Below are positions 33,072-51,639 of a DNA stretch of 64,000 nt, piece by piece (position 1 is the first letter of the stretch; every line of letters begins with the position of its first letter). Both the position numbers and the translations under genes were made by a program. The notes beneath the pieces were generated by a model, which saw only the letters and a program-made list of their open reading frames with translations, searched no databases and was not told the origin of the DNA. This DNA comes from an uncultured Pseudomonadales bacterium (lineage in GTDB: Bacteria; Pseudomonadota; Gammaproteobacteria; Pseudomonadales; JADFDG01): assembly GCA_964574995.1 (NCBI GenBank), contig CAZNPF010000013.1, positions 9,050 to 73,049 of the forward strand. The letters run 5' to 3'.

Positions 33072-34256
33072 TTAGCCCGGTACGCCAAACCCCAACGCCG
33101 CGAGCACTGTCCGCGGCGTTTTTGTTGGTGTCTCCGTCGATCGTTGCTCGGCGGGCAGACCGACCAGCCGGTAATGAGCAAACTCCCGACGTTCGGGGTA
33201 GTTCCGCCGCAAATCATCAAATGCCCGCGCCGTGGCCACCGCATCATCGCTCACCGCTGCCCGCAGGCGAACGTCATCACTGGGCACATCACACACCGAC
33301 GCCAGTGTCGTGGCCACACTTCCCGCCCAACGTAAAATCTGCGGGTGATCGCCACGCGCGATTCGGATAGCGGCCAAATTGGTCGTTGGTGTCATGCCCA
33401 GATGGCGGCAGGCCGCCTCATAGAGCATGGCCGTGCCGCGCCACTTGCCTTCCACGCTATAGCCCGCCACGTGCGGTGTGCCGTAATCCACCTGCGCCAG
33501 CAGCCGTGAGGGCACCGCAGGTTCAGCTTCCCAGACATCTAGCACCGCGCGGCGTCTGGGATCTTCCGCCAGCAGTGCCGACAGCGCCGTGTTATCGATC
33601 ACCGGTCCTCGCGCACTGTTGATCAGCAGATGCCAGCGACCTCGTCGCAAGCGAGCCGCATCGAACAAATGCCAAGTCGCGTGCTCACCCTCGCGACTCA
33701 ACGGCACATGCAGCGTCAGAACATCGGCCCAATCGAGCATTTCATCCAGCGTCAGGGCGGGTATTCCGGCAGGCAGGCTGGCTGCAGGCAGCAGCGGATC
33801 ACAGACCGCAACGGCATGCCCGAGTGCCTGCACCCGTGACAGCACCTCGCGGCCGGCATTCCCGTAACCGACCACCCCCACCCGCCAAGGCCCACCGCCC
33901 GTACCCTGTGTCGCCGACTGTGCCGCCGATTTCTCGGCACTCAACGCCAGCACCGTCGCCACGTACTCACCCACGGCAACCGCATTACAGCCGGGAGCCG
34001 CCGCAAACGGGACACCTCGCTCCTTCAAAAGCGGCAGGTCGATGTGGTCCGTGCCGATCGTGGCCGATCCGATGAACCGAGGCCGACTATTCCTCAGTAA
34101 TGCCGCGTCGACGCGCGTGACCGATCGGACCAGTAATAGGTCTGCCCCGGCCACATCCGAAGGTTTCATCGTTCGGCCAGAAAAAGTCCTTATTTCACCA
34201 AGATCGGCGAAGAACTCTGCCAATAGCGGCATATTCTCGTCGGCAACAATCAGCAT
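33072..34256 (-). CDS. pdxB: Erythronate-4-phosphate dehydrogenase
   Basis: MLIVADENMPLL N-terminus and NAD motif VGVVGYGNAGREV. ATG 34256 is preceded by GGAGAG; the track start 34268 is a TTG. Confidence 0.88.
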   Translation of the reverse strand: MLIVADENMPLLAEFFADLGEIRTFSGRTMKPSDVAGADLLLVRSVTRVDAALLRNSRPRFIGSATIGTDHIDLPLLKERGVPFAAAPGCNAVAVGEYVATVLALSAEKSAAQSATQGTGGGPWRVGVVGYGNAGREVLSRVQALGHAVAVCDPLLPAASLPAGIPALTLDEMLDWADVLTLHVPLSREGEHATWHLFDAARLRRGRWHLLINSARGPVIDNTALSALLAEDPRRRAVLDVWEAEPAVPSRLLAQVDYGTPHVAGYSVEGKWRGTAMLYEAACRHLGMTPTTNLAAIRIARGDHPQILRWAGSVATTLASVCDVPSDDVRLRAAVSDDAVATARAFDDLRRNYPERREFAHYRLVGLPAEQRSTETPTKTPRTVLAALGFGVPG

Positions 34257-34764
34257 CAATCTCTCCAAAGCACAGGCACTGCCGGTCGGCCAGACGCCAA
34301 GTCAGATTCGCCCTTCCTGTCAAAGGCGGCGGACGGTAACGCATGACGGCAGTTTCTGGCAGGTCCAATCCATCATGACAACCCCCGGATAACCGCTGGC
34401 AGCGGAAATGCGCCGTCCACACGCAGCCCCAGAACTGCGGATTCCGAACGCCTCAAACAGGCCTATCCAAAGGCAGCGCGAGCAGCACAACGTCAGCACG
34501 ACCCCGCGACGCACACAGGAACAAACCCTGCACAAAAACCGTCCTTCCTCTTAGGTGCGCAAGTCCGATGACGGCCCCAGTAAATTCAGGATGTTGCGAT
34601 ACGAAAGCCTTGTATCACGCTAAGGAATTCTGGCTATACTCCAGCGCCGCCCTTCTCAGCAGAAGGGCGGGCTTCGCTGGCTTTGCGCTGCCGGCGAAAC
34701 CGGGGACGCTTAGGTGATTCCGGTTGCAACACACGAACCTGCCGTTCACAGGACAACAAAAATA

Positions 34765-35277
34765 ATGGCTCATCTTGCCCGCATTCTCGGTATTGCCCTG
34801 TTCTTGCTTTGCTCGTTCCCGGGCCATGCTGCCGACGCCGCCAGCCGCGACTTGCAAGCACTCAAGCAAAACGTACTGGACCTCAACAAGGAACTGACCA
34901 CGCTGGAGCAGCAATTGCTGTATCCCAGCACACAGATCGCCGTGTTTCTGTCCATTGACGTCGGCACCCCAATTCGTCTGGTCGATATCAACCTGCTGAT
35001 CGACAACAAAAACGTTGGCTACCACTTTTACACCGATCAAGAGTTTCAGGCTCTGACCAAGGGCGGAGTTTCTCGTCTCTATACCGGCAACTTAACCAGT
35101 GGCGAACACACCCTGCGCGCCACCATCACCGGTTATGACCCGCAAGGTAAGGACTACCAGCGCAGCACTGCTTACAAATTCGTCAAAGGCGCCGGCCGCA
35201 AAATGATCGAGCTGAAGGTGGTCGATGACGTCGAGACTCGCCAGCACAAGTTCGAATTCAAGGAGTGGAGCGAGTAA
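34765..35277 (+). CDS. Secreted protein, first gene of the motor/TPR locus (signal peptide + short coiled coil + beta-rich domain)
   Basis: ATG 34765 gives MAHLARILGIALFLLCSFPGHA-ADAAS (Sec signal). This is followed by heptad-like LQALKQNVLDLNKELTTLEQQLL and then a beta-rich C-terminus. Confidence 0.7.
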   Translation: MAHLARILGIALFLLCSFPGHAADAASRDLQALKQNVLDLNKELTTLEQQLLYPSTQIAVFLSIDVGTPIRLVDINLLIDNKNVGYHFYTDQEFQALTKGGVSRLYTGNLTSGEHTLRATITGYDPQGKDYQRSTAYKFVKGAGRKMIELKVVDDVETRQHKFEFKEWSE

Positions 35278-35316
35278 TCGCTCCCCCCGAGTAGAACCTT
35301 CGCGAGCGTGCTGCGC

Positions 35317-37281
35317 ATGTCCCTGCTACGACGGATCCTGTCGCCCGAATTCCCAGCGTCGACGACGAACCGGCTTGCTGCTGGTCTTGTCGCTTTCACC
35401 GTGCTCGCGACACCGGCCGCGCAGGCCATTGATCCGAGCAAGCTGAGCAAAAATCTCATCGCTGACGATTACGTCGAGCCGCTGGATCCTGCCACGGTGC
35501 TGTTCGGCGAAGTCATGTTCGACTTCTATAACAACCGCAACCTGTCAGCGATCACCAATTTGATGATGGCGCGCGACAAAGGCGTCTTTGGGGATCGAGA
35601 CGATTACTCGGATGTTGTGCTGGGCAATCTCTATATCAGCTACGGCCTTTTCAACAGCGCAGAAAACATTTTTTCACGCCTCGTAAAGCGAGACATTCTG
35701 GCCAAGACCCGAAACGAAACGTGGTTCCATACGGCGGAACTGCAATACAACCAAGGGCGTTACGACGAGGCCGCGCGCATTCTCGAAAATAAGATCGCCA
35801 ATTTGCCGGCAGATATCGAGAAGCAACGTTTGGTCATGCTGGGCAACATTTATATCGGGCGCGGCGAGTATCAGCGCGCAGGCGACCTGCTTACCAATGT
35901 CAAAGCCAACGACGTCTTGGGCGCTTATGCCCTCTATAACGCCGGCGTTGCCTTTGCACGTGCCGGTGAATTCGAGCGAGGCCTACCTCTGCTCAAGCAA
36001 GTACGTGACTTACCGCCGGGCGACGAAGAAACCAATGCCCTCAAAGATCGCGCCGCATTGGCTATCGGTTTCACATGGCTACAGAAAGGCAATAACGATC
36101 TTGCGCGTGAATCACTGCTCACCATTCGCATGGATGGCCCGTTCACCAACCAAGCCATGCTCGGCTTGGGTTACGCCAACTTCCAGCGGGGCGACTTCAA
36201 AAAAGCCCTGCCACTATGGCTCGAATTACTGCAACGCAACACGTCTGACACCACAGTACAAGAAGCTTTGATGCTTGCGCCGCGCGCATACGAAGAATTG
36301 CATGCTCTGCCGCAAGCCCTGTTTGGCTATCGCTACGCCGCCGACACCCTGCGTGATGAACTGAAGAAAGTTGAACGCACCATTCTTCGCATCAAGCAAA
36401 GCGATTGGCTGGATTCGCTGAATCCAGAAACCGCCAAAGATGCGGCCCTCGGCAGTGATCCACTGGCACCGGTCACCAATTACGCGCCCGCCAAAATTCC
36501 CGAAGCACCGTACCTATATAGTTTGTTTGCATCCAATTCCTTCTCGGAAGATTACAAACTTTATCTGGACCTGCGCCGGACCGAAAAACTCATCGACTAC
36601 TGGCGCGCGCAGATTCCGATTTATCGTGCCACGCTGGCGGAACACCGTACACGTTTAGGGCCACTTCGCGCCCGCTTGGACGATGTCATTGCCCGTCGTT
36701 CCCGCGATACGGCCGCATTAGAAGCACGCGTGACTCCGCTGCAAGCACGCATCGAAGATGCCATTCGCCGCGGCGACCTCGAGCAAACGGCTTCATTAAC
36801 AGATCTGGACCGCCTAGGTCGCGCACGTGCTGTTGAAGCGGCATTGGGCAACGCGCCGGCCAACTCAGCCCTGCGCGAGCGGCTACGCCGCATGAAGGGT
36901 CTCATTATTTGGGACATTGCCGTCTCAGCCTCCGCACAACAGCAGCAGGCCATTCGTGACATCGAAAACATGAAGGTCGATCTTGAGATGGCGCAATTGC
37001 ATGTCGATGCACTGACGCGCCAGCGTGACGAAATCATCCAACGGATGAGCCCCGCGCTCGACCTAAAGTTTGATCAATATGAGCAGCGGCTACAGGCCAC
37101 TAAAGATGAAGTGACGGCTCGTTTGCAGAAGCAAGTGTTGGCTCTGCAAAACCAAGCGCTGATCGTATTAGCGGAAAACCGTCGCAATCTGGGTATGCAG
37201 CTGGCTGAAACACACCTAGCCATCGCCCGCTTGCAAGATGCTTCGATCAGTGACGCTATCGAGAAGAGGAAACGCCAGTGA
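35317..37281 (+). CDS. Periplasmic TPR protein with ~300-aa C-terminal coiled-coil region
   Basis: 654 aa from ATG 35317. It has a signal-like N-terminus ...LVAFTVLATPAAQA-IDP. The N-terminal half is TPR-like. The C-terminal half is Arg/Glu/Leu-rich and heptad-like (..LEARVTPLQARIEDAIRRGDLEQ.., ..LQATKDEVTARLQKQVLALQNQ..). Confidence 0.75.
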   Translation: MSLLRRILSPEFPASTTNRLAAGLVAFTVLATPAAQAIDPSKLSKNLIADDYVEPLDPATVLFGEVMFDFYNNRNLSAITNLMMARDKGVFGDRDDYSDVVLGNLYISYGLFNSAENIFSRLVKRDILAKTRNETWFHTAELQYNQGRYDEAARILENKIANLPADIEKQRLVMLGNIYIGRGEYQRAGDLLTNVKANDVLGAYALYNAGVAFARAGEFERGLPLLKQVRDLPPGDEETNALKDRAALAIGFTWLQKGNNDLARESLLTIRMDGPFTNQAMLGLGYANFQRGDFKKALPLWLELLQRNTSDTTVQEALMLAPRAYEELHALPQALFGYRYAADTLRDELKKVERTILRIKQSDWLDSLNPETAKDAALGSDPLAPVTNYAPAKIPEAPYLYSLFASNSFSEDYKLYLDLRRTEKLIDYWRAQIPIYRATLAEHRTRLGPLRARLDDVIARRSRDTAALEARVTPLQARIEDAIRRGDLEQTASLTDLDRLGRARAVEAALGNAPANSALRERLRRMKGLIIWDIAVSASAQQQQAIRDIENMKVDLEMAQLHVDALTRQRDEIIQRMSPALDLKFDQYEQRLQATKDEVTARLQKQVLALQNQALIVLAENRRNLGMQLAETHLAIARLQDASISDAIEKRKRQ

Positions 37282-40200
37282 TGTCGTCGGCGCATACGCT
37301 TCGCTTTTCTCGCTTGGCCATGGCCGTTGCGCTTTTGTCCGCCGGCTGCGCCTCACATGCGCCTGCAGACAAAAACTCAGCTGACTCGCAGGCGCAACCC
37401 GTCAACAGTCGCTATGCCTCGCAGACTCTTGCCGATTTAGAAAAGTCGGATGTTCAGGTTACCGAGGGAAGCATCGACGAAAACGTTTCCCTGGAAGGCG
37501 CTCTGGTCAATTACAAGCAAGCCGTCCAGTTATTCAATGATCCTGAAAAACGGGTCGAATCACTGCGTCGAATGGCCGACCTCACCATGGCTGCCAGCCA
37601 AGAAAAGGAAGGTGTTTCGCTTGCCGAGCAACCCGTCGTGCCGGCTCAGCTGACCGAGGAAGGCGAGGTCAAACTCGATCGCGATATCGACTCCATGCTG
37701 TTCCAAAGCTTTATGCAGGGCGCAGCGGATGCCAAATCGCAAGAAGAGAAATATCGAATGCTCGATCTGGCCGGCGGCATCGTGCCAGAACTCGAAGGCA
37801 GCAGCCTAGCTGCCAACTACGAAACAGCCATCCTGCTTTATCAGAGCGTCATCAAGAACAGCCAAGACCCCAAAGAAAAAGCAGAAGCGTATTACTTGCT
37901 GGCCAAGGCATACGACATCAGCGGCAAGCATGATGAATCCATTGCTGCGCTCAAAGATTTGTGCCGCCTCTACCCCAACAGCACGTTCTATCTGGAATCT
38001 CAATTCCGCTTGGGCGAGTTTTATTTTTCAGATGGCGAGTACGACCTTGCCACGGCGGCCTACACCGAAGTATTGCGCCCAGGCAACGCCACACCGTTTT
38101 ATCAGCAGGCGATCTACAAGCGCGGCTGGAGCCAATACAAAGTTTCCGACTACGAAAAAGGGTTAGTCGACTTCTTCACGCTGGTCGATCTGCTGCAGAA
38201 ATCTACTGCTACCGGCAAGGATGCAGAACGCGACAAGCGCCTGCTGGATGACACGTTCCGCGTCGCCTCAATGTCCTTCAACAACTTGGATGGCGCTAAA
38301 TCGGTAACGGCTTGGTTTAACAAAAACGGGCATCGTCCTTACGAACCCGAGATTTATCACGCTTTGGGCGAAATCTACGTCAAGCAAGAACGTTACGTAG
38401 ATGCCTCGGAAACGTTCGAGACTTTTGTAAAACTCTACCCCGACAGCGATCGTGCGCCAGAATTCTCCTCCGCAGCGATCAAAGCGTTACAGGACGGCGG
38501 TTTCCCAACCCAAGTACTGCCCGCCAAAGAGCGCTTTGTCAAAGCCTATGGCATTCAGAGCAAGTACTGGCAGGCACACGAGAAACAACGGCTCGAATAT
38601 TTGCCGCTGCTGAAATCACACATTCTTGATTTGGCCAAGTACTACCACGCCACCGCACAGAAATCGAAAGACACCGATGGCTACTTGGTCGCAGCAGGTT
38701 GGTACCAGCAATGGCTGCAGACCGATCCGAAGGACAGCGGCGCAGCTACCGTCAATCACCTGTATGCCGAAGCCTTGTTTGCTGGGAACGACTTTACGCG
38801 TGCGATTCGCGAATTCGAACGCACTGCCTATGAGTATCCAGGCTATGAAAAAGCGCAGGAAGCTGGCTATTTTGGCTTGGTCGCATGGCAAGCACTGGGC
38901 GATCAATCCAAGGCCGATCCAAAGCGCAGCGCGGAATACACGCAACTTCTGCCGAAGAAAATCGATGCCAGTCTGAAATTTGCGCGCACATTCCCTGCGC
39001 ACCCGAAAGCACCTTACGTGATTCAGTCGGTCGTCGAAGACCAACTCGCTCGCAAGGACGTTCCAGCAGCGATCAGCAGCGCCGGCATGCTGGTATCGCT
39101 TAAGCCAGCTGCTCCGCAGGAATTGCAACTTTACGGTTGGCAAACCATCGCAAACGGTGAGTTTGATACTGGCCGTTACAACGTGGCTGAGTTTGCCTTC
39201 ACCAAAGTGTTGGCCTTTCAGACCCTCAAGCCGGATGAGCGAAAGACGTATAACGAGCGCTTAGCTGCCAGCATTTACAAGCAAGGCGAGAAGTTGATTG
39301 CCGAGGGCAAAGAGCTTGAAGGCGCCGCCCAGTACATGCGTGTCGGTAAAACAGTTCCCGATGCCAATATTCGCGCCAACGCGGAATTTGATGCCGCCAA
39401 TATCTTCTTGAAGAAGGAACAGTGGCTGACCGCCATTCCCATCCTCGAACAATTCCGCACCAACTATCCAAAAAACGAACTGGTCGACACCATTCCCGAC
39501 AAGTTAGCAGTAGCCTACGAAAAGACTGGCAACTTCGCGGGCGCCGCCGGCGAAATGGAGGCCATCCACAACGCCAACCTGAAAACTAACCCAGAACTTG
39601 CCCGCGCCACACTTTGGCGCGCAGCCGAGTTGACCGAAAAAACAGGTAACGAAGCTGGCGTACTCCGCCTGTTCAGCCTCTACGTGGCGGAGTTCCCGCA
39701 ACCGTTAGAGCCCAGAATGGAAGCGCAGTACCGCTTGCTGAAGCTTTACGAAAAACGAGGCGATCTGAAACAACGTGACGTCATGCTGACCGCTCTTTCC
39801 TCTGCCGCACGAGACGCCGGCGAGAATGCGACCCCTCGCGTACGTTACTTGGGCGCATACGCGTCTTTCACCTTGGCCGACCCGATCTTTACGCGCTTTA
39901 CCGATTACAAGTTGACTGCGCCGCTGAAAAAATCACTGGCCGAAAAGCGCAGGCTGATGGAAACGGCGTTAAACGCCTATGCCACGACGTCAAAAATGGG
40001 GGTCGCCGATTTCACATCGGCCGCCCAGTTCCGTACGGCCGAGATCTATCGGATTCTTGCCGCCGACCTCATGAGTTCAGAGCGGCCGCGCGGTCTCGAC
40101 GAACTGGCGCTGGAACAGTACGAACTCTTGCTAGAAGAACAAGCTCTGCCGTTTGAAGACAAGGCGATCGAGCTTTACACCCTGAACACCGAGCTGGTGA

Positions 40201-40316
40201 AACAGGACATTTATGACGATTGGGTTCGTAAGAGCTATGCCGCTTTGGCTGTTCTTCAACCTGGTCGCTTTGCGAAGAAAGAGCAGACGGATGACTATGT
40301 CGACATCATCTATTGA
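37281..40316 (+). CDS. Large TPR lipoprotein (1011 aa; GltD/AgmU-like in architecture)
   Basis: The ATG at 37281 overlaps the upstream stop (TGATG). The lipobox is AVALLSAGC-ASH. TPR / YbgF-like repeats run throughout (e.g. AEAYYLLAKAYDISGKHDESIAALKDLCRLYPNS). Confidence 0.8.
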   Translation: MSSAHTLRFSRLAMAVALLSAGCASHAPADKNSADSQAQPVNSRYASQTLADLEKSDVQVTEGSIDENVSLEGALVNYKQAVQLFNDPEKRVESLRRMADLTMAASQEKEGVSLAEQPVVPAQLTEEGEVKLDRDIDSMLFQSFMQGAADAKSQEEKYRMLDLAGGIVPELEGSSLAANYETAILLYQSVIKNSQDPKEKAEAYYLLAKAYDISGKHDESIAALKDLCRLYPNSTFYLESQFRLGEFYFSDGEYDLATAAYTEVLRPGNATPFYQQAIYKRGWSQYKVSDYEKGLVDFFTLVDLLQKSTATGKDAERDKRLLDDTFRVASMSFNNLDGAKSVTAWFNKNGHRPYEPEIYHALGEIYVKQERYVDASETFETFVKLYPDSDRAPEFSSAAIKALQDGGFPTQVLPAKERFVKAYGIQSKYWQAHEKQRLEYLPLLKSHILDLAKYYHATAQKSKDTDGYLVAAGWYQQWLQTDPKDSGAATVNHLYAEALFAGNDFTRAIREFERTAYEYPGYEKAQEAGYFGLVAWQALGDQSKADPKRSAEYTQLLPKKIDASLKFARTFPAHPKAPYVIQSVVEDQLARKDVPAAISSAGMLVSLKPAAPQELQLYGWQTIANGEFDTGRYNVAEFAFTKVLAFQTLKPDERKTYNERLAASIYKQGEKLIAEGKELEGAAQYMRVGKTVPDANIRANAEFDAANIFLKKEQWLTAIPILEQFRTNYPKNELVDTIPDKLAVAYEKTGNFAGAAGEMEAIHNANLKTNPELARATLWRAAELTEKTGNEAGVLRLFSLYVAEFPQPLEPRMEAQYRLLKLYEKRGDLKQRDVMLTALSSAARDAGENATPRVRYLGAYASFTLADPIFTRFTDYKLTAPLKKSLAEKRRLMETALNAYATTSKMGVADFTSAAQFRTAEIYRILAADLMSSERPRGLDELALEQYELLLEEQALPFEDKAIELYTLNTELVKQDIYDDWVRKSYAALAVLQPGRFAKKEQTDDYVDIIY

Positions 40317-41199
40317 TCTGCGTCCGTCACTGACGGCCCTCACTCTGGCAGCAGCGTTGCTGGCAGGTTGTGCCAGCACACCTAAACCGGCGGCACACAG
40401 CACGAAGCCTGCTGTTGATAACGTGAATACGGTTCGCGCTGTACGGCAGCAACCTGCCGCGCCCGCTGCCACCGCCAGTGACACAACACACCAGACAACC
40501 GTGACGGCGGCCCCAGCAGCACAGCAGGCTGCGCAACAGGCGGCACCTGAGTATTTCGCCGCGATACAAGCAATGAAGGCCGGGAAACTGGACGAAGCTC
40601 TAACCAGTTTCAAAACCATGTCGACACGTTTTCCCGGCTTGTCAGGTCCGCAAGTCAATCAAGCGCTGATCTACGTGCGCAAAGAGCGGTGGGATGATGC
40701 GCTGAAATCTCTCGATGCCGGCCTGAAAATCAATTCACGCAACCCCTACGCATGGAACCTGCGCGGTATTGTTCTGCGTCAGCAAGGAAAATTTGCCGAT
40801 GCACGCAAAGCCTACGAGAACGCGCTATCCATCGATGCGATGTATGCCAAAGCGCATTTCAATCTGGGTGTGTTGGCCGATCTGTATTTGCAGGATATGA
40901 AACTGGCGCTCGAGCACTACGAAAAATATCAAGCCCTGCAGAAAAAACCGGACCCTGCTGTCAATAACTGGATTGCTGACTTACGCAACCGTTTAGGCAT
41001 TGCACCTGTCGCAGCACCGGCTGCGGCGCCCGCCGCATCAGAACCTGCCGCGGCGACTCCGGCGGCAGATAGCGCAGCACCAGCAACTGCATCACCCGCC
41101 TCGGCCACGCCTGCACCGGCACCCGCCGCATCGCAGCCTGAAACTCCACCGAGTGGCGCCACCCCGCCACCCGCAACATCCGCCACTGCCGCAGGGTGA
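40291..41199 (+). CDS. TPR lipoprotein with Ala/Pro-rich C-terminal tail
   Basis: ATG 40291 (or 40297) overlaps the preceding gene by ~20 nt. The lipobox is AAALLAGC-AST. It has 3-4 TPRs (NPYAWNLRGIVLRQQGKFADARKAYENALSIDAMYAKAHFNLG). The last 65 aa are low-complexity A/P/S/T. Confidence 0.78.
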   Translation: MTMSTSSIDLRPSLTALTLAAALLAGCASTPKPAAHSTKPAVDNVNTVRAVRQQPAAPAATASDTTHQTTVTAAPAAQQAAQQAAPEYFAAIQAMKAGKLDEALTSFKTMSTRFPGLSGPQVNQALIYVRKERWDDALKSLDAGLKINSRNPYAWNLRGIVLRQQGKFADARKAYENALSIDAMYAKAHFNLGVLADLYLQDMKLALEHYEKYQALQKKPDPAVNNWIADLRNRLGIAPVAAPAAAPAASEPAAATPAADSAAPATASPASATPAPAPAASQPETPPSGATPPPATSATAAG

Positions 41200-41204
41200 T
41201 TGCC

Positions 41205-41594
41205 ATGCAGAAATTATTTTCCCGTCTCTGTTTTGTTTATCTGCTGGCCTGCGTTGCCAGCGCCCAAGCTGCTGATCCTGCAGCAGCCACCACAGCTGGT
41301 ACTAATACCGCAAAGCCTGCGAATGCTGCGCCCGGCAAGACAACAGCAACAACGAATACCGCAGCTGCGTCAGCGACGGCCAAGAATGATTCGGGGTTGG
41401 TGACCAACGTTGTCGGCTCGCAAGAAGCACCCACAGTGCTAAACGTTGTGCCTTGGAAAGACAAGGATGTAAAACTGGAAAAGAAAAATCCCACTACTTC
41501 GATTTTGAACCAAGTACTGCAACCGCTGGATCGCGATGTTCTCAAACGCGAGGTCCAGTATTTCCGCAGCCTGCAAGAACAAAAAACCCCTTAA
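41205..41594 (+). CDS. Small secreted protein (129 aa)
   Basis: Signal peptide MQKLFSRLCFVYLLACVASAQA-AD, then an Ala/Thr/Asn-rich linker, then a conserved-looking C-terminal ~60 aa. Confidence 0.65.
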   Translation: MQKLFSRLCFVYLLACVASAQAADPAAATTAGTNTAKPANAAPGKTTATTNTAAASATAKNDSGLVTNVVGSQEAPTVLNVVPWKDKDVKLEKKNPTTSILNQVLQPLDRDVLKREVQYFRSLQEQKTP

Positions 41595-41651
41595 CTGCGT
41601 TTCTCAACGCAATATCACCGAGTTACAGACAAGACCCACAGGAGACGTGAA

Positions 41652-42314
41652 ATGGCAACTGCGAATGAACCCGGCCTGATTATGAGTGCCGTCCATTTTT
41701 TCCAGGTCGGCGGATTCTGGATGTACCCCATCCTGCTGACGCTCATCGCCGGCATTTTTATCGGCTTTGAACGTTATTTCTTTTTGCAGTCGACGACCAA
41801 TCGCAATAGCAAAGCTTGGGATGATCTTTTCCCGTTGCTGAGCAAAGGCAACTTCAAGCAAGCACTCGACACCGCCAAGAAATCTGAGACATTCATGGGC
41901 AACATCATTGCTGCAGGTCTGGCACGTTCTGTCAGCGCACGCCGCACTGAAGACATTGAATTGGCGATGGAAGAAGCCTTGATGGAAGTGTTGCCGCGTT
42001 TGGAAAAGCGCACGCACTACCTGTCTACGCTGGCCAACGTTGCTACGCTGCTCGGCCTGCTTGGAACCATCGTGGGCCTGATCCACGCATTTACCGCGGT
42101 AGCCAGCGCCGACCCGGCTGAAAAAGCCAACATGCTGTCGGCAGCCGTGGGCGAAGCCATGAACTGTACGGCGTTCGGACTGGTGACCGCGATCCCGATG
42201 CTGGTTCTGTTCTCTTTCCTGCAATCAAAAGCGGGAGAGACAGTCGCGAGCTTCGAATCTGCGTCTGTCAAATGCTTGAACCTAATCCGTCAATTCGCCA
42301 GCAAGGCCGAGTGA
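41652..42314 (+). CDS. MotA/TolQ/ExbB family proton-channel protein
   Basis: 220 aa with three TM segments. Signature motifs are ATLLGLLGTIVGLI and NCTAFGLVTAIP. AGGAG lies upstream. Confidence 0.9.
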   Translation: MATANEPGLIMSAVHFFQVGGFWMYPILLTLIAGIFIGFERYFFLQSTTNRNSKAWDDLFPLLSKGNFKQALDTAKKSETFMGNIIAAGLARSVSARRTEDIELAMEEALMEVLPRLEKRTHYLSTLANVATLLGLLGTIVGLIHAFTAVASADPAEKANMLSAAVGEAMNCTAFGLVTAIPMLVLFSFLQSKAGETVASFESASVKCLNLIRQFASKAE

Positions 42315-42344
42315 TCCCTCTGACCTGATACACCAGGAGTCGCT

Positions 42345-42860
42345 ATGAGGGCCAAGAAGCCTCGCGAAATGGAGGCCGACCTCGACATGACCACCTTCAT
42401 TAACTTGATGGTGGTTCTGCTCGCATTCCTGCTGGTTACCGCGGTGTTCACCGAGGTTACACGTCTGAACGTGAACCTCCCTGCTCCGGGTGCTGGCGGA
42501 TCGGCTGATAACAATAAACCTGCCTTAGTGCTGGAAGTTACCCTTTATAAGGATCGGATTCTCGTCGCTAACCAGACGACCGGCCCACTGAAGGAATTTC
42601 CGGCCACGTCCGACGGTCTCGACTTCAAAGGTCTCAAGGATTTTCTGATCGAGTTAAAAGATCAGTACCCGGCTGTGACCGAGGTATCCCTGATGCTGGA
42701 AGCCGACACTCCCTATGACTTGATCATTCAAGGCATGGATGCGGTTCGCTACAAGCCACGCATGGTCAACGGCAAGCAAATCAAAGCTGCTCTGTTTCCG
42801 GACATCAGTTTTGCCAGCGCCTTACCACCGCCAGCTCCGGCGGCAGGAGGCACGCCGTGA
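42345..42860 (+). CDS. ExbD/TolR family protein, paralogue 1 (Asn at the conserved TM Asp position)
   Basis: 171 aa. The TM segment DMTTFINLMVVLLAFLLV aligns with E. coli ExbD NVTPFIDVMLVLLIIFMV, so D25 corresponds to N here. AGGAG RBS. Confidence 0.85.
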   Translation: MRAKKPREMEADLDMTTFINLMVVLLAFLLVTAVFTEVTRLNVNLPAPGAGGSADNNKPALVLEVTLYKDRILVANQTTGPLKEFPATSDGLDFKGLKDFLIELKDQYPAVTEVSLMLEADTPYDLIIQGMDAVRYKPRMVNGKQIKAALFPDISFASALPPPAPAAGGTP

Positions 42861-43357
42861 AACAGTCTGCTCGCGCAAAACGCATGCTGCGCCGTCATAA
42901 GTTCAACAAGCCGGCGGTTATCCAGCTGACTTCGTTGATCGACATTCTCACGGTTCTGGTGTTCTTCCTGCTGGTCAACCAGCAGAACGTCACCCAGATT
43001 CCTGGGGGTGATCAGATGCAGTTACCGCATTCAACTGCTGAAGAAATGCCGGTTGAATCGCTGACGGTGCTACTCACGAAAGACGCGATCATCGTGCAGG
43101 GGGTGAAAGTCGCTGATATGGCCGCTGTGGCTAATTCGGACGAACCACTCATCCCGGGCCTCGCTCAGGAACTGCAATATCGTGCATCCAAGACTCCACC
43201 CAAAATCAACGACCAAGGTCTTCCAGAGCGGGAGATCATGATCCTGGGCGACAAGGAGATTCCGTTCTCTTTGCTGCGCAAAGTCATGGCCACTTGTAGC
43301 GAGAATGATTATTCGAAAATTTCCTTCGCAGTCTTGCGCAAGAAGGAAGGTGCGTGA
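42857..43357 (+). CDS. ExbD/TolR family protein, paralogue 2 (conserved TM Asp present)
   Basis: The GTG start overlaps the upstream TGA (GTGA), with AGGAGG 7 nt upstream. The TM segment QLTSLIDILTVLVFFLLV retains the Asp. Confidence 0.85.
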   Translation: MKQSARAKRMLRRHKFNKPAVIQLTSLIDILTVLVFFLLVNQQNVTQIPGGDQMQLPHSTAEEMPVESLTVLLTKDAIIVQGVKVADMAAVANSDEPLIPGLAQELQYRASKTPPKINDQGLPEREIMILGDKEIPFSLLRKVMATCSENDYSKISFAVLRKKEGA

Positions 43358-44319
43358 TGGCGGCGAACCCGTTTGAAGGCATCTCTCGCTTTGATTATCT
43401 GACCGGGTCTTATCTCGCATGGGATAGCATCGACGGCGATCGCAAACGCAATCGTTGGCTGGCGCTAATCGCGCTGCTGTTGACGATTGGCATCGTGAGC
43501 GTGGTCGTTAGTATCGACGTGCCCAAGGTTGATCGTGCTGTTGCCGAAAAGGTACCGGAACGATTAGCCAAACTGGTCATGGAGAAAAAACTGGAACCAC
43601 CTCCGCCGCCACCGCCCAAAGTGGAGGAGAAAAAAGAAGAAGAAAAACCTGAGGAGAAAAAGCCAGAAGAAAAACCGACGGAAGTTCAGGTAACCAAAGC
43701 CAAGGCGAAAGCCGAAAAGGCTATGGCCGAAGCTAAAAAAGAGCTGAGCGCCATGCAGGACCTGACGTCAGCGTTTGATTTTGGTAATGCTCCTCTGACC
43801 AAGGCTGGCGCAGCTGGTCCGGGCAACGACTTCGTCGCTCGCGACACGCTCACCAGCCGTGCCGGGAAAGGTTCCGGTGGCGTCACCATGGGCACCACGT
43901 CCAGTGGCGGTGGTGGCTACGGTCTGGCCGGTGGCGGCAAATTGGCGGGCGCTCAAGTGGCGGCTGTCGAATCCGGCATCGCATCGGGTGGCACGGGTGT
44001 CACTCGCAAGAGTGCCAGCGGCAAGTTGGAGCGCACGGAAGAAGAAATTCGCCGCATGATGGACCGCAACAACGGTGCACTGCAGGCAATTTATCAACGT
44101 GCGTTGCGCGCCAATCCAACGCTTAAAGGCCAGATCGTATTGCGGCTGGTCATTGCGCCGGATGGTTCACTCACCACGGCAGACATCACGTCATCAGAAC
44201 TCGGGGATCCGGAAACCGAGAAGAAGTTGCTCATGCGCATCAAGCTGATCAACTTCGGAGCGATCCCTGGCGTGATGGTTTGGGATGGCAAGTACACGCT
44301 CAACTTCTTCCCAAGCTGA
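43357..44319 (+). CDS. TonB-like energy-transducer: TM anchor + Pro/Glu/Lys-rich spacer + Gly-rich region + TonB-C-like (AgmX/PglI-type) domain
   Basis: TGATG overlap with the upstream gene. TM segment WLALIALLLTIGIVSVVVSI. Spacer EPPPPPPPKVEEKKEEEKPEEKKPEEKP. C-terminal domain LQAIYQRALRANPTLKGQIVLRLVIAPDGSL... Confidence 0.8.
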   Translation: MAANPFEGISRFDYLTGSYLAWDSIDGDRKRNRWLALIALLLTIGIVSVVVSIDVPKVDRAVAEKVPERLAKLVMEKKLEPPPPPPPKVEEKKEEEKPEEKKPEEKPTEVQVTKAKAKAEKAMAEAKKELSAMQDLTSAFDFGNAPLTKAGAAGPGNDFVARDTLTSRAGKGSGGVTMGTTSSGGGGYGLAGGGKLAGAQVAAVESGIASGGTGVTRKSASGKLERTEEEIRRMMDRNNGALQAIYQRALRANPTLKGQIVLRLVIAPDGSLTTADITSSELGDPETEKKLLMRIKLINFGAIPGVMVWDGKYTLNFFPS

Positions 44320-44341
44320 CGTGTAGTACCTGTGTAACAGA

Positions 44342-44372
44342 AGACGGGGCGCTACGGCGCCCCGTCTTTTTT
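44342..44372 (+). terminator. Rho-independent terminator after the TonB-like gene
   Basis: AGACGGGGCGC-TACG-GCGCCCCGTCT followed by TTTTTT. The stem is a perfect 11 bp. Confidence 0.85.
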
Positions 44373-44417
44373 ACGGTATGGTTGCGAGGTAATCCATTCG
44401 TGCGAGTTTCTACATTT

Positions 44418-44981
44418 ATGCACACCCGACTTCTCACGCTGACATTACTGCTCGCTTCAGCACTCTCCGGCTGCAAACTCATGCTGCCACCATTACTGCT
44501 GCCACCGCCCTCGGATATCGGCACCGACTACTCTGGCCCGATCTATCGCAGCCCCAGCGCCGATGCGCCGCGTGTTGTCGGTGATGCGCCCGTGCTGCCT
44601 GTCACGGCAACAGCGGACTGTCCGACGATTACAGAAACGCCCAGCCGGAAACGCAGCGACTGCAGCGTGACCTCCGTCATGACGCGCTACAACGCCGGGC
44701 TGCAATCCCTTTATCAAAAGCGACTGGCTAACGAACCGCTGCTCAAAGGCACGCTAGCGTTACGACTATCCATCGCCGCAGATGGCAGTGTCAGCGGCGT
44801 AGACGTCGCTAACAGTGCTTTGCATTCGCCCGATTTCATTCGGGAAGTGTTGGCTTATGTGCGCACGATTCCTTTCGGCGCTCTGCAAGACGTCCCAGTC
44901 TGGGCAAATAACTACACCGTCGTTTTCACACCGCCACAAGAAGTGATTCCAGACAAACCGGGCGGCCCCACCATTCACTGA
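44418..44981 (+). CDS. Lipoprotein carrying a second TonB-C-like (AgmX/PglI-type) domain
   Basis: ATG 44418 gives MHTRLLTLTLLLASALSGC-K (lipobox). The C-terminus LQSLYQKRLANEPLLKGTLALRLSIAADGSV...IPFGAL..VPVW..NYTVVFTP is a clear paralogue of the C-terminus of the preceding gene product. Confidence 0.75.
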   Translation: MHTRLLTLTLLLASALSGCKLMLPPLLLPPPSDIGTDYSGPIYRSPSADAPRVVGDAPVLPVTATADCPTITETPSRKRSDCSVTSVMTRYNAGLQSLYQKRLANEPLLKGTLALRLSIAADGSVSGVDVANSALHSPDFIREVLAYVRTIPFGALQDVPVWANNYTVVFTPPQEVIPDKPGGPTIH

Positions 44982-45578
44982 TCAATCACAGCATTGCTGC
45001 TCATCATTTGCCCCGGGCCATACAAACCGTGTTGGCTCGGGCGGCCACGCAACGCCATAGCGATTCGCCATGGCACGCGCCAGTTGCAATGCGCGTGGTG
45101 GCATCCCAGAAAAACTTCCACTGACGCTGATGCAACGCTGCAATTCTTGATGCACGGCTCGCCACAAAGAGCCCGCATCCAACGGTTCATTAATAGCCAG
45201 ATTGTCTAGGCTGACTGAAAAATGACGGCCACAGGCCACACTCAGCACCCACTCGACTGCTTGGGGTCGCGCCTCCACGCGTTCGAACTCCGCTTGACGC
45301 GCCAACGTGCGGCCATCCGGGTCGTACCAATAACCGTAGTCCATCTGTTGCCGGCGTGATTCTCCCGCCACACACCAATGCGCCAATTCATGCAGGGCAC
45401 TCTGAAAATAATCGTGCCGAAAAACAATGTCGTGCCAAGCCTGCTCATGGCTAGCCGGGCGATAAAGCGGTTCGTCGCCACCCGCGATTAGCCGCGTGCG
45501 ATGGCTGGCACCAAACTCCCTCATAAACAGGGCAATCAATGTCGAAACGTCATCGTTGTCCGCCATGAAAAAATCCAC
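44982..45578 (-). CDS. epmC: Elongation factor P hydroxylase
   Basis: It is collinear with E. coli EpmC (YfcM) as recalled: TRLI.GGDEP.Y.PA, HELAHWC.AG..RR...DYGYWY.PDGR, VEA.PQA.EW. The start may be ATG 45566. Confidence 0.8.
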   Translation of the reverse strand: MDFFMADNDDVSTLIALFMREFGASHRTRLIAGGDEPLYRPASHEQAWHDIVFRHDYFQSALHELAHWCVAGESRRQQMDYGYWYDPDGRTLARQAEFERVEARPQAVEWVLSVACGRHFSVSLDNLAINEPLDAGSLWRAVHQELQRCISVSGSFSGMPPRALQLARAMANRYGVAWPPEPTRFVWPGANDEQQCCD

Positions 45579-45622
45579 CGCTGAGCTAGAATGCTGCGTT
45601 ATATCGCCGCGCGCACCCTATC

Positions 45623-47077
45623 GTGACCTCGCTACCGACTCAATCCCCTGCTTCACCACACCCTCGCACGCAGCGCGAAGCGCGTCGTCAAGAATGGCGT
45701 GCGCTGCTGGCCTTGCTGTTGCCGATCCTCGGCGGACAAGTAGCACAAACCGCCAACGGTTTCGTCGACACCATCATGGCTGGCCAAGTGAGTCCTCTCG
45801 ATCTTGCGGCTGTCGCTGTGGGTGCCAGTATTTGGGTGCCACTTTTTTTATTTATGGTCGGCGTGATCATCGCGGCCACACCCATCTTGTCTCAGCACAT
45901 GGGTGCCGGCCGTCATGCGCATGTGGTGCCGACCGCCTGGCAAGCGCTCTGGTTGGCACTGGCCATCGGCCTGTCGGGTTTCGTTTTGCTGCGACATGTC
46001 GCGTGGCTGTTTGTGTGGATGGATGTGCCACCCGCCTTGCACGCATTGACCGTGCAATATCTCAATGGCCTGTCGTGGGGCATGCCCGGCATTGCATTGT
46101 TCATCGGTCTTCGCAGCTACACCGAATCACTGTCGCATCCCATGCCGGTATTGCTGATCAGTTTCATCGGTTTAGCAGCCAACATTCCGTTGAACTACCT
46201 CTTCATCTACGGTTTTGATCTTGGCGGACCCTTGTGGATGGCCCCCTTGGGTGGTCCGGGGTGCGGCGCCGCCACGGCGGTCGTGATGTGGCTGATGGCA
46301 GGTTTGCTGTGGCTGTATGTGCGTCACGCACCTCACTATCGTGAGCAAACGCCGGCGGGCACTCGCTTCGACACAAAGATACCGCTGCCGAATCCACGCG
46401 CATTGCTCGACATGCTGCGATTGGGTCTGCCAATCGGCATGGCTATTTTTTTTGAAGTGAGCATTTTTTCCGCCATTGCCGTGCTGCTCAGCACGCTGGG
46501 CGCCAACGTGGTTGCCGGCCATCAAATTGCGCTGAATTTTGCATCGTTGACCTTCATGTTGCCGCTGTCGGTAGGGTTAGCGCTCACCGTGCGTACCGGG
46601 CTCGCTGTCGGTGCCAATGATGCCGACGCGGCTCGGTTGGCTGTGCGCACGGGGCTCACGCTGGCCATCGGTATCGCCCTGTTCAACGCGGCTCTCTTGG
46701 TGCTGGGGCGCAATGCGATTCCTGCGCTGTACACCGATGATCCTGCTGTGCGCGCGCTGGCTTCTGCGCTGCTGATCTACGCCGCGTTGTTCCAACTCCC
46801 GGATGCACTGCAAGTCACGGCCAATGGTGCTTTGCGTGGTTTTCGCGACACGCGTGTACCGATGTGGCTGACACTGCTGGCCTACTGGTGCATCGGTTTA
46901 CCCATCGGCTGGTGGCTGGGATTCGGCACACTGTTCGGCGTCGATAGCGGCGTCACACTAGGGCCACAAGGATTCTGGATCGGGCTAGTCGCAGGCCTTA
47001 CGGTGGCCGCCCTTCTGCTCAACTATCGATTGATGCGATTAATGCGGTCGATGCGATTGATGCGCCCTTCGCTATAG
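45623..47077 (+). CDS. MATE family efflux transporter (NorM-like)
   Basis: 484 aa with 12 predicted TM segments. N-terminal LLLPILGGQVAQTANGFVDTIMAG is typical of NorM. GTG start. Confidence 0.85.
   Translation: MTSLPTQSPASPHPRTQREARRQEWRALLALLLPILGGQVAQTANGFVDTIMAGQVSPLDLAAVAVGASIWVPLFLFMVGVIIAATPILSQHMGAGRHAHVVPTAWQALWLALAIGLSGFVLLRHVAWLFVWMDVPPALHALTVQYLNGLSWGMPGIALFIGLRSYTESLSHPMPVLLISFIGLAANIPLNYLFIYGFDLGGPLWMAPLGGPGCGAATAVVMWLMAGLLWLYVRHAPHYREQTPAGTRFDTKIPLPNPRALLDMLRLGLPIGMAIFFEVSIFSAIAVLLSTLGANVVAGHQIALNFASLTFMLPLSVGLALTVRTGLAVGANDADAARLAVRTGLTLAIGIALFNAALLVLGRNAIPALYTDDPAVRALASALLIYAALFQLPDALQVTANGALRGFRDTRVPMWLTLLAYWCIGLPIGWWLGFGTLFGVDSGVTLGPQGFWIGLVAGLTVAALLLNYRLMRLMRSMRLMRPSL
47027..47062 (+). 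repeat. In-frame 9-bp x4 tandem repeat at the 3' end of the MATE gene
   Basis: CGATTGATG CGATTAATG CGGTCGATG CGATTGATG, encoding RLM-RLM-RSM-RLM. Confidence 0.8.
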
Positions 47078-47384: not shown

Positions 47385-48101
47385 ATGGGCACCTCAAGCA
47401 CACCGCAGGATTCTACGCGCGGTCGGGTTATCGACTTCGACGCACATCGCCGCCGTCGCGACAGCGCCGGTCCGGGCCGCATCATCCGCATCACGCCGGA
47501 AAACGACGGTATTCGCACCCTGTACGGTAACGACCGTCATCCAGATCGCCTCGTCTCGCTGGACATCATCGGCTGGGCGCTGCACGAGTCCGGCACGGTA
47601 TCCGCGCTGGTGCCTTGGCTGAAAGATGTCGTCACCGCCGACCAACTCGCCGATCCACTCAATGGCCATTGCGAAGGCTACTGGGATCCCTTGGGAGAGC
47701 GACTAATTCCTGAAGCGCCCGCGCACAAGCGCGTTGAATTGCATTCGGCATTGGATTTTTTCGGGCCAGCACGCAATGACCATCAAATCATCGTGCAAAC
47801 GTTTCCCGATTCCGCCGGCACACACGTCGTGATGTCCAGCGATAGCTTCCAAACCGTCAATCTTTTTGAAGTGGTCGCGTGGCAATTACGCGGTGATGGC
47901 CGCGTGTTGGCCATGCTGGCCGACCGTGATCGCGTAACCGACACACCGGTGCTGGCCACCGATCGCTGCCTCTACCCGGCGCAGGAAAATCCTGCGTTTC
48001 GCTATTTCTTTCAGCATTCGGTGGCCAACCAACTCAAACGTCACGAGCCGGAAGCGTTGGCATGTCTGGCGGTACTGGCAGGTGGATTACCCGCTGACTG
48101 A
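47385..48101 (+). CDS. Hypothetical protein (238 aa), possible internal duplication
   Basis: ATG-started ORF with GGAAGG 8 nt upstream. I recognise no family. Confidence 0.6.
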   Translation: MGTSSTPQDSTRGRVIDFDAHRRRRDSAGPGRIIRITPENDGIRTLYGNDRHPDRLVSLDIIGWALHESGTVSALVPWLKDVVTADQLADPLNGHCEGYWDPLGERLIPEAPAHKRVELHSALDFFGPARNDHQIIVQTFPDSAGTHVVMSSDSFQTVNLFEVVAWQLRGDGRVLAMLADRDRVTDTPVLATDRCLYPAQENPAFRYFFQHSVANQLKRHEPEALACLAVLAGGLPAD

Positions 48102-50716: not shown

Positions 50717-50766
50717 GAGTGGCCAAGTTACTGTTTTTAACTACAAAGACGAGAACGGGGATCAGT

Positions 50767-51639
50767 ATGATGCCCGCCATGATCGCACGACTTCACTCAG
50801 AACCCCGCGCCCGGCGCCCATCCACAGCGCGCTTTCTTGTTCCCGCCCTGCTTGCTTGGCTGCTTATCGGTGCCGCACAAGCAGAGCCCAGCGACGCACC
50901 TGACGCACCGGCTACTCCGCTCACAGCGCCAACGCCCACCTCGCCCGATGCAGCGGCACCCGTATTTGATCCGGACTTTGATCCCGGCTTCGGTGGATTT
51001 GAACCCACACCCGGTGGCTTCAATCCGGACACCGCAGTTGCCGCACCCGTAGCGCCTGAACTCAAAGCCCCCGCGATTGATGCCTATTTGGATATCGCCG
51101 CGCTCAATGCCGATCTCGGTGCTCTGGGCTTCGATCAAGACTCAACGGGGTTTCGTTTGCTGGCGGGTTTTCAGTTCAAAGATGTCGGCGCTGGACGCTG
51201 GGGCCTAGCATCAGAAATTGGCTTGCTGGATTTCGGCAGCGGCATGCGTAATGACGTCACGAGCGTTCTAGAAAGTGGTTACATCAAAACCACAACGAAT
51301 CACATCACCAATGATGTTTCGTCATTGAGTCTTGGCACCAAAATTACGTGGACTTCACGCGCAGTATCACCCTATCTGCGCGCAGGCATTCACGCCTATC
51401 ACCAACACCAGCGCGCACAAACGCGGTATACCTATATTCCTCTCGGCCCTCAGCCGCCCATACCGCCGACCACACTACAACCGCAAACCGTCACCGACGT
51501 CGGCCTTAACCTTTGGGGTTTGTTGGGGCTGGAAATGAAACTCGGCAACTCGTATTCGCTGTATGCCGAGTACGGGCTGTTCAATCTTGATGATGGCGCC
51601 ATGAATGTTGGTATGGCCGGCATCATTTGGAATTTCTAG
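50767..51639 (+). CDS. Outer-membrane beta-barrel protein with Pro/Ala-rich N-terminal linker
   Basis: Signal peptide ...FLVPALLAWLLIGAAQA-EP. Alternating beta-strand pattern. The C-terminus GIIWNF ends in an aromatic residue (beta-signal). The start is uncertain (50767-50779); the track GTG at 50719 abuts the rlmM start. Confidence 0.7.
   Translation: MMPAMIARLHSEPRARRPSTARFLVPALLAWLLIGAAQAEPSDAPDAPATPLTAPTPTSPDAAAPVFDPDFDPGFGGFEPTPGGFNPDTAVAAPVAPELKAPAIDAYLDIAALNADLGALGFDQDSTGFRLLAGFQFKDVGAGRWGLASEIGLLDFGSGMRNDVTSVLESGYIKTTTNHITNDVSSLSLGTKITWTSRAVSPYLRAGIHAYHQHQRAQTRYTYIPLGPQPPIPPTTLQPQTVTDVGLNLWGLLGLEMKLGNSYSLYAEYGLFNLDDGAMNVGMAGIIWNF

Follow-up and report, generated by a model that had tools for sequence, protein, structure and literature searches.

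A probable Agl-Glt core complex in a gammaproteobacterium: nine coupled genes for a TolQR-like motor with its tetratricopeptide repeat proteins, and one clade-specific lipoprotein gene

The 64,000-nucleotide stretch of DNA considered here (the window), from contig CAZNPF010000013.1 of an uncultured Pseudomonadales bacterium, carries ten open reading frames (ORFs), g1 to g10, which lie on the + strand and in one direction between positions 34765 and 44981. Their products probably belong, as a gammaproteobacterial representative, to the Agl-Glt core complex family, in which a proton-driven motor of the inner membrane would act on a tetratricopeptide repeat (TPR) scaffold tethered to the outer membrane. 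The conserved, translationally coupled unit is the nine genes g1-g9, to which one clade-specific gene, g10, is added. The core complex is widespread and is regarded as the evolutionary origin of the gliding and spore-coat machines of Myxococcus; a description of the module appeared in 2011, and the window adds no new kind of system. What the window offers are sharper targets, namely a nine-gene unit that includes g1, a stator with an apparently single Asp, gene-level evidence on the motor-transducer and GltC-GltD contacts, and a candidate cargo in a sister subfamily. An earlier note, made from the sequence alone, had read the locus as an envelope-spanning, proton-driven machine, and this reading appears to be essentially correct, being supported by a match to the core family in gene order and protein sizes.

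The published core and the nine-gene unit

According to Luciano et al. 2011 (PMC3169522), the core is composed of aglR, aglQ, aglS, gltD, gltE, gltG and gltC, together with one gene that is absent from Myxococcales. The genes are described there as clustered in non-gliding Gammaproteobacteria, in one betaproteobacterium and in Geobacter, with an 'unknown function', and the core is presented as the ancestor of the Myxococcus gliding motor, with horizontal transfer inferred among Gammaproteobacteria. The resemblance that the earlier note had pointed out, to a Myxococcus Agl-Glt/Nfs core occurring in non-gliding Gamma- and Betaproteobacteria without an assigned function, agrees with the paper. 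Table S3 names the genera Marinobacter, Shewanella, Cellvibrio, Saccharophagus, Teredinibacter and Hahella, with clusters such as Maqu_1595-1602 and Maqu_1807-1814 of Marinobacter aquaeolei, Sfri_1223-1230 of Shewanella frigidimarina and CJA_3313-3319 of Cellvibrio japonicus. The proteins follow one another there as GltC (550-692 residues), GltD (939-1016), GltE (162-263), an untagged protein, AglR (217-245), AglQ (170-188), AglS (162-185) and GltG (321-334), and the window proteins g2-g9, with 657, 1012, 302, 132, 220, 171, 166 and 321 residues, are arranged in the same order as in eight clusters of this table. The window locus thus holds the AglR, AglQ and AglS set, a GltG-type transducer beside the motor, the GltC, GltD and GltE order upstream, and a small gene between the gltE and aglR positions. 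It shares with the 2011 core the gene order, similar sizes, a single cluster and a non-gliding lineage, and it adds g1 up front and, in its own clade, g10; g1 is a conserved first gene that is absent from the accessible 2011 core listing.

Pfam and NCBIfam scans of the window proteins bore out the content that the earlier note had proposed, i.e., one MotA/TolQ/ExbB protein, two ExbD/TolR proteins, three TPR proteins, two proteins with an AgmX/PglI domain and two small signal-peptide proteins. The coordinates it gave for the ten co-directional genes and for their junctions were exact: TGATG at 37279-37283 (g2/g3) and at 43355-43359 (g8/g9), GTGA at 42857-42860 (g7/g8), and an overlap of g3 and g4 that amounts to 26 nucleotides (40291-40316). 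In addition, g4 and g5 overlap by four bases. The GC content of the locus, 0.54-0.56, is the same as that of the window.

The same note had described one coupled locus of ten genes, of which only the part g1-g9 held. The ten genes do not form a single coupled unit: a 98-nucleotide gap with a strong terminator, between the g9 stop (44319) and the g10 ATG (44418), separates the last two, and true g10 orthologues are limited to the six closest loci (L001-L006). The unit g1-g9 is ended by an intrinsic-terminator-like hairpin on the + strand (44339-44372) with a 14-bp GC-rich stem, a UACG loop and a U6 tail. The folding energy of 44320-44420 is -43.1 kcal/mol (z = -5.47), with none of 200 shuffles folding as well, and a hairpin followed by a T-run occurs about 40 nucleotides past the g9 stop in most related loci. 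A consensus promoter and terminator scan, which returned fewer sites than in shuffled sequences, missed this terminator, later shown by folding; an Rfam scan of 33500-46000 gave a sub-threshold chance match on it and nothing else.

The tenth gene, g10 (44418-44981, + strand), encodes a lipoprotein of 187 residues with the lipobox LSGC, Lys at position +2 and the second AgmX/PglI C-terminal domain of the locus (NF033768, 42.1 bits against a curated cut-off of 40). Between this domain and its counterpart in g9, identity is 39% (E 1e-21), and a PDB sequence search with g10 returned nothing meaningful. We read g10 as what looks like a clade-specific, lipoprotein-anchored duplicate of the C-terminal domain of g9. 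Matches to 'g10' in most other loci proved to be cross-hits inside the C-terminal domain of g9 and were rejected as orthologues.

Upstream of g1, a block on the + strand (34577-34672) is near-invariant between the window and four of its relatives (L001, L002, L003 and L006), while the flanking intergenic DNA varies. Within it lies TATACT (34635-34640), after which comes a GC-rich hairpin (34646-34672), and it may comprise a promoter and a 5' leader; the block matched no Rfam family, and the consensus promoter scan passed over it. We also considered a sigma-E/AlgU-type promoter upstream of g1 and rejected it, as it occurs once in the window and is conserved in none of the relatives.

The extent of the unit follows from its conservation. 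A profile search with g3 homologues led to 80 genome loci, with which the window proteins were then compared by tblastn. These loci come from Alcanivoracaceae, uncultured Moraxellaceae, Agitococcus, Fluviicoccus, Pleionea/Kangiellaceae and unnamed gammaproteobacterial metagenome-assembled genomes (MAGs), the closest relatives being MAGs with 71-83% identity in g3. The order g1-g9 is kept in essentially all of the 80 loci that are long enough to hold it; in four, g1-g2 have been relocated to the downstream end, still within the cluster. Usually, pdxB lies upstream of the operon, and this synteny is conserved across families. Eight distant contigs, found via homologues of g1, g9 or g3, hold all nine genes in order, with E-values from 1e-7 (g5) to 0 (g3), and one of them belongs to a MAG labelled Myxococcales. 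Because the same order recurs in essentially all of the 80 loci and in the eight distant contigs, chance is by far too weak an explanation for the g1-g9 arrangement. In the 80 + 8 loci, TPR and motor genes show strict co-conservation; the earlier note had named a lack of such co-conservation as a point that would speak against its reading. The GltD-like (g3) family as a whole comprises 2432 representative clusters at E <= 1e-30.

Stator, transducer and scaffold

The motor is encoded by three adjacent, translationally coupled genes, one of the MotA/TolQ/ExbB type followed by two different ones of the ExbD/TolR type. The first, g6 (41652-42314, + strand; AglR position), is a proton-channel subunit by its match to PF01618 (MotA_ExbB, 99.3 bits) and lies far under the equivalog cut-offs of TolQ (TIGR02796, 66 vs 221 bits) and ExbB (48 vs 206). 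In 71 loci, conservation of its two transmembrane motifs, GLLGT and AMN-T--GL--AIP, reaches at least 95%. The paralogues g7 (42345-42860, + strand; AglQ position) and g8 (42857-43357, + strand; AglS position) match PF02472 (ExbD) with 56.5 and 56.2 bits, respectively, and are about 25% identical to each other; their scores with the TolR equivalog model TIGR02801 are 28 and 23 against a cut-off of 127, and both also stay under the ExbD equivalog cut-off.

The two paralogues are asymmetric. Neither the g7 motif F[ILM]NLMV nor the g8 motif L[MI]DI[FL]T varies across about 70 loci and the distant cluster L081, and in the alignment N20 of g7 falls on D29 of g8, with the Asn invariant in the former and the Asp invariant in the latter. 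We take g8 D29 to be equivalent to ExbD D25 and TolR D23, given the shared Pfam ExbD register and what is generally known of those proteins. The membrane-embedded Asp of the inner subunit of a 5:2 MotA/ExbB-type motor is therefore present in g8 and not in g7, and this asymmetry would imply a stator with a single protonatable Asp. According to a review (PMC9389320), AglQ and AglS both carry the Asp; if so, the Asn/Asp asymmetry is a difference from Myxococcus.

The presumed force transducer is g9 (43354-44319, + strand), a GltG-like protein that matches NF033768 with 57.8 bits. The GltG equivalog model also matches it (E 1.5e-12) over residues 69-302, which comprise the linker and the C-terminal domain; the match is partial, as expected for a protein without the FHA part. 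The architecture is that of a short cytoplasmic part (about 40 residues), a transmembrane helix (TMH), a Pro/Glu/Lys linker, a helix, a Gly/Ser-rich segment and a TonB-like domain. An AlphaFold2 (AF2) model built with 28 homologues places the TMH at 27-53 and a helix at 110-140, with a disordered Pro-rich stretch between them, then a disordered Gly/Ser-rich stretch and a C-terminal domain at 217-318 with a pLDDT score (predicted local distance difference test) above 90. PDB sequence searches with g8 and g9 gave nothing meaningful, and Pfam TonB_C did not match g9. When the modelled C-terminal domain was compared with the PDB by Foldseek, the top 20 or so matches were all C-terminal domains of TonB, HasB, FusB or TolA, with 6SLY as the best (E 5.9e-3, target template modelling score 0.56) and Vibrio TonB2 (2K9K) among them. 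In the 2025 model of the Myxococcus machine (PMC11761067), 6SLY is the best match of the GltJ domain too. Conserved motifs are found inside the otherwise disordered Gly/Ser segment of g9, which fits the wrapping of GltG into a crevice of GltD that has been modelled in the same paper.

The way in which the motor genes vary among close relatives suggests how motor and transducer might be connected. The flanking genes are similar to those of the window in all six loci L001-L006. In L001, L003 and L006, identity to the window is 75-83% for g3, about 58, 40 and 45% for g6, g7 and g8, and 31-43% for residues 1-62 of g9; in L002, L004 and L005, the corresponding values are 71-75%, about 84, 77 and 78%, and 61-63%. 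The rest of g9 is 70-86% identical in both sets. The segment 41652-43540 of the window, which covers g6-g8 and residues 1-62 of g9 (the cytoplasmic tail and the TMH), thus has its own history and was exchanged as one block. Since g6-g8 and this part of g9 travel together, co-inheritance of the g9 helix with the motor is gene-level support for a contact between the two, such as the AglR-GltG interaction found by two-hybrid analysis in Myxococcus according to PMC3169522. The exchange also qualifies the suggestion of the earlier note that the locus is ancestral rather than accessory. At the level of the family this holds, with conserved pdxB synteny; it does not hold for the motor cassette, which was exchanged among close relatives, and horizontal transfer among Gammaproteobacteria was likewise inferred in the 2011 paper.

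The remaining genes would provide the scaffold. The earlier note had ascribed lipoboxes to two TPR proteins and had called the second AgmX/PglI-domain protein a lipoprotein, and direct reading of the sequence agrees: LSAGC in g3, LLAGC in g4 and LSGC in g10, with Asp at position +2 in none of the three. By the usual sorting rule, a lipoprotein without Asp at +2 goes to the outer membrane, and g3, g4 and g10 are accordingly predicted outer-membrane lipoproteins. The largest of them, g3 (37278-40316, + strand), stands in the GltD position and is the presumed central scaffold; it matches multiple TPR families and, in four stretches, the YbgF/CpoB model (85.9 bits vs a cut-off of 90.1). In the GltE position, g4 (40291-41199, + strand) matches TPR_11 with 61.8 bits. 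The secreted protein g2 (35308-37281, + strand; GltC position) has N-terminal TPRs (TPR_16, 66 bits) and a C-terminal part of 330 residues that has no Pfam match and is 30% charged; the coiled coil of about 300 residues that the earlier note had described in one TPR protein, here g2, is putative.

Contact between g2 and g3 can be approached through natural fusions of the two, which account for about nine of the top 150 GltD-like representatives and are 1441-1549 residues long. In one of these (P0378, encoded at 10001-14527 of L087 in an otherwise identical cluster), g2 matches residues 41-615 (E 8e-30) and g3 residues 676-1508. As natural GltC::GltD fusions, they support a physical contact between g2 and g3, which fits the GltC-GltD contact modelled in PMC11761067.

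Two small secreted proteins complete the set. The first, g1 (34765-35277, + strand, 170 residues), matches no Pfam or NCBIfam family, and its 119 homologues are all unnamed or misnamed. Its AF2 model (pLDDT 85.6) consists of a signal peptide, a long helix (22-52) and an immunoglobulin-like beta-sandwich (57-168), for which a fold search found no PDB match at E <= 0.001, only generic beta-sandwiches. Four homologues (P0153, P0189, P0215 and P0230) are named 'AraC family transcriptional regulator' in public records, a label that looks wrong because g1 has a signal peptide and a beta-sandwich. The other, g5 (41196-41594, + strand), takes the place of the additional gene of the 2011 core and likewise matches no Pfam or NCBIfam family. 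Its N-terminal half is of low complexity and only 30-40% identical in close relatives, whereas the C-terminal half, 83-92% identical, bears the motif TNVIGsQEAPtVLNVVPWK, after which conservation continues over another stretch; the motif is kept in distant clusters. In Myxococcus, GltF has been modelled as mostly disordered, with one strand that pairs with the C-terminal domain of GltG and a terminal helix that docks on GltC. No sequence similarity between g5 and GltF was detected. In position, g5 sits where gltF lies in M. xanthus and matches the untagged gene of Table S3 in PMC3169522, and we infer from this layout that g5 may be the GltF equivalent.

Taken from the composition of the locus, the topology signals, the fold of g9, the co-conservation and coupling of the genes and the terminator that bounds them, the proposed mechanism would run as follows. 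In the inner membrane, g6 would form the proton channel of a TolQ/ExbB/AglR-type stator, with a g7/g8 heterodimer inside the channel in which g8 alone keeps the membrane-embedded Asp. The transducer g9 would bind this stator via its single TMH and cross the periplasm via the Pro/Glu/Lys-rich linker, so that its Gly/Ser-rich segment and TonB/TolA-like domain could engage a scaffold that is anchored in the outer membrane on its inner side. Besides the lipoproteins g3 and g4, this scaffold would contain the secreted g2 with its TPRs and, as small secreted components, g5 and g1. Proton flow might then be converted into cyclic pulling or displacement of the outer-membrane-associated complex, as has been proposed for Tol-Pal, Ton and the Myxococcus Agl-Glt/Nfs machines. 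In the clade that has it, g10 might add a second, outer-membrane-anchored TonB-like domain, analogous to the docking of GltJ on GltD in Myxococcus.

Several points weigh against the assignment to the Agl-Glt core and against the mechanism built on it. The assignment rests on gene order, sizes and domain models and not on direct alignment to M. xanthus GltC, GltD, AglR, AglQ and AglS. The GltE model NF033758 matches g4 weakly and non-specifically (E 3.8e-6), no better than other TPR families do. In the NCBIfam scan, no GltC or GltD model matched, not even for cluster L081 of the 'Myxococcales' MAG, and cluster look-up supplied almost no names for distant GltD-like matches, so it gave no link to Myxococcus GltD. 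With an Asp on both AglQ and AglS, as the review states, the stator described here may work somewhat differently. Moreover, 63 of 67 loci lack a His in the TMH segment of g9; as the SHLS-type residue known from TonB and TolA is missing, the details of coupling may differ from those proteins. No outer-membrane beta-barrel or cargo gene is linked to the locus in the subfamily with a short GltG, to which the window belongs, and the output end is thus undefined. Finally, all protein contacts are deduced from gene-level patterns and published AlphaFold models of the Myxococcus machine.

Possible outputs of the machine

The comparison with Myxococcus raises the question of whether the locus could encode a working gliding-motility machine like that of Myxococcus or Bdellovibrio. 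The likeness is considerable: the Agl-Glt and Agl-Nfs systems also have one TolQ-like and two TolR-like proteins, a GltG-type transducer with an AgmX/PglI domain, and three kinds of TPR protein, namely a large one of the GltD type, a small lipoprotein of the GltE type and a secreted one of the GltC type; the locus has homologues of the motor and of part of the Glt transducer. Both also have a second TonB-like domain, in GltJ in Myxococcus and in g10 in the window. However, the window locus is one operon instead of three clusters, it lacks the outer-membrane barrels GltA/B/H as well as GltK, CglB, GltI and GltJ, and carriers of the window type are not known to glide. PMC3169522 shows that motility takes more than the core genes and confines the genes of Group A (gltA, B, F, H, I, J and K) to Myxococcales and Bdellovibrionales; nothing resembling them was found at the locus, where matches to the GltJ model cover only the shared C-terminal domain and linker. 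With about 40 cytoplasmic residues, g9 also lacks the FHA domain that couples GltG to GltI. A gliding machine is therefore scarcely credible here, whereas descent from the same core remains the probable reading.

It is scarcely less doubtful that the locus is a specialised Ton system of the TonB2 or TonB3 type, energising TonB-dependent receptors. ExbB-ExbD-TonB systems, including Vibrio TonB2 (TtpB-TtpC-ExbB2-ExbD2-TonB2-TtpD), share with the window the motor superfamily and the TonB-like C-terminal fold, as reflected in the match of g9 to 2K9K. TonB2 also has an associated TPR protein, TtpD. A few g9 homologues carry PF03544, and some are labelled 'TonB family protein'. In three Kangiellaceae loci (L070 and two related ones), a receptor with Plug and beta-barrel domains lies 1.3 kb downstream, at 17336-20335 in L070. 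Nevertheless, the other 77 of the 80 loci have no receptor beside them, nor do the eight distant neighbourhoods; consistent adjacency to such receptors, which the earlier note had listed as evidence against its own reading, was thus not observed. As that note had also stated, no TonB-dependent receptor, TolB, Pal or flagellar protein is encoded among the approximately 50 window ORFs scanned (siderophore genes were not specifically sought), and no Fur box with three or fewer mismatches is present in the window, the best site upstream of g1 scoring 9/19, under the mean of shuffled sequences. Neither a trio of TPR proteins nor a pair of ExbD paralogues is typical of Ton systems, and a counterpart of TtpC, a large MotA/TolQ/ExbB protein of about 450 residues, is missing. 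Because receptors occur at only three of the 80 loci, all in Kangiellaceae, and at none of the eight distant ones, and because there is no Fur box and the ExbB/ExbD cut-offs are not reached, Ton-type import is unlikely; the lack of a Pfam TonB_C match on g9 and of the SHLS-type His points the same way. The latter also sets the locus apart from the TPR/TolQ-like/two heterologous TolR-like/von Willebrand A transducer clusters of the Planctomycetes-Verrucomicrobia-Chlamydiae (PVC) group (PMC12204202), whose transducer ends in a von Willebrand A fold and keeps the SHLS His, whereas that of the window is TonB-like and does not.

An output of the Tol-Pal kind deserves more attention, although it too is improbable. 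The machine would then be a paralogue beside canonical Tol-Pal that pulls on outer-membrane lipoproteins for attachment, constriction or lipid balance. Tol-Pal has a TolQ/TolR-type stator, a one-TMH transducer with a long linker and a TolA/TonB-like domain, CpoB-like TPR modules and an outer-membrane lipoprotein, all of which recur in the window. The best equivalog matches are TolQ for g6 and TolR for g7 and g8, domain III of TolA is among the fold matches of g9, the YbgF/CpoB-like modules of g3 come close to their cut-off, and three outer-membrane lipoproteins are predicted; the housekeeping context and the pdxB synteny across families would also be in keeping with envelope maintenance. On the other hand, TolB and Pal are missing from the locus as well as from the scanned window ORFs, the equivalog scores are far too low (66 vs 221 for TolQ, 28 vs 127 for TolR), there are two heterologous TolR-like genes instead of one, and the lipoprotein TPR proteins are far larger. 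This explanation bears on nothing but the output and does not conflict with a place in the Agl-Glt core.

A further possibility, still a rather doubtful one, is the handling of surface macromolecules, i.e., that a giant adhesin or an exopolymer is moved, exposed or spread, as with Agl-Glt and the adhesin CglB or with Agl-Nfs and spore-coat polysaccharide. Wartel et al. 2013 proposed the core as a 'basal transport machinery' for surface cargo. In sister clusters with a long GltG (431-459 residues), a giant gene lies directly downstream on the same strand in six of six cases, starting at 16836 in L081, 11690 in L083, 11966 in L085, 11735 in L086, 11080 in L088 and 11727 in L089. Five of these genes are called at 3529-4897 residues, the sixth being cut by the end of its contig; the proteins have a signal peptide and matches to DUF11/CLIPPER, SdrD_B, bMG10 and DUF7619. 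The giant repeat protein is a candidate cargo or output of the long-GltG subfamily, on the basis of this genomic association. Beside the operon, however, neither the window nor any of the 80 loci with a short GltG has such a gene, and no polysaccharide-export gene was found among the window ORFs scanned. One might go further and suppose, tentatively and with the odds against it, that the Agl-Glt core serves generally, powered by protons, to deploy or move surface proteins or polymers of very large size, with the cargo gene beside the operon in the long-GltG subfamily and the short-GltG type serving an unlinked cargo. If this were true, the Asn/Asp heterodimeric stator and the exchangeable motor with its transducer helix would be family-specific adaptations.

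On balance, we judge an output in the organisation or movement of cell-surface macromolecules or in outer-membrane maintenance to be more likely than nutrient import of the TonB type. The literature to 2026, including papers of 2013, 2017, 2022 and 2025, a gliding review of 2026 and searches by locus tag and keyword (with subscription papers mostly outside reach), reports no function for the core outside Myxococcus; nor does it describe a characterised system there of which the window genes would be orthologues, which the earlier note had considered as a case against its reading.

Carriers and surroundings

Several named isolates carry the operon, namely Alcanivorax jadensis T9, Agitococcus lubricus DSM 5822, Fluviicoccus keumensis DSM 105135 and Pleionea mediterranea DSM 25350, and genetic work on it looks feasible. 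One further carrier stands out by its label: contig JAVHYE010000075.1 (L026), assigned to a Pedobacter sp. MAG, has a full operon of the gammaproteobacterial type with pdxB and MATE synteny, and its motor genes are the closest to those of the window after the clade relatives L002, L004 and L005. This contig is probably mis-binned.

Around the operon, the window consists of housekeeping genes, among them pyrF, lapB, rpsA, cmk, aroA/tyrA, pheA, gyrA, scpAB, msrB, htpX, pdxB, epmC and a MATE pump gene. Two ORFs have no Pfam family, one of 238 residues at 47385-48101 (+ strand) and one of 396 residues at 62556-63746 (- strand) with a signal-peptide-like N-terminus. A small outer-membrane beta-barrel protein, whose link to the operon would be conjectural, is encoded at 50719-51639 (+ strand), 5.7 kb downstream of the operon and beyond five genes of mixed strand; it matches PF13505 with 29.7 bits, barely over the cut-off.

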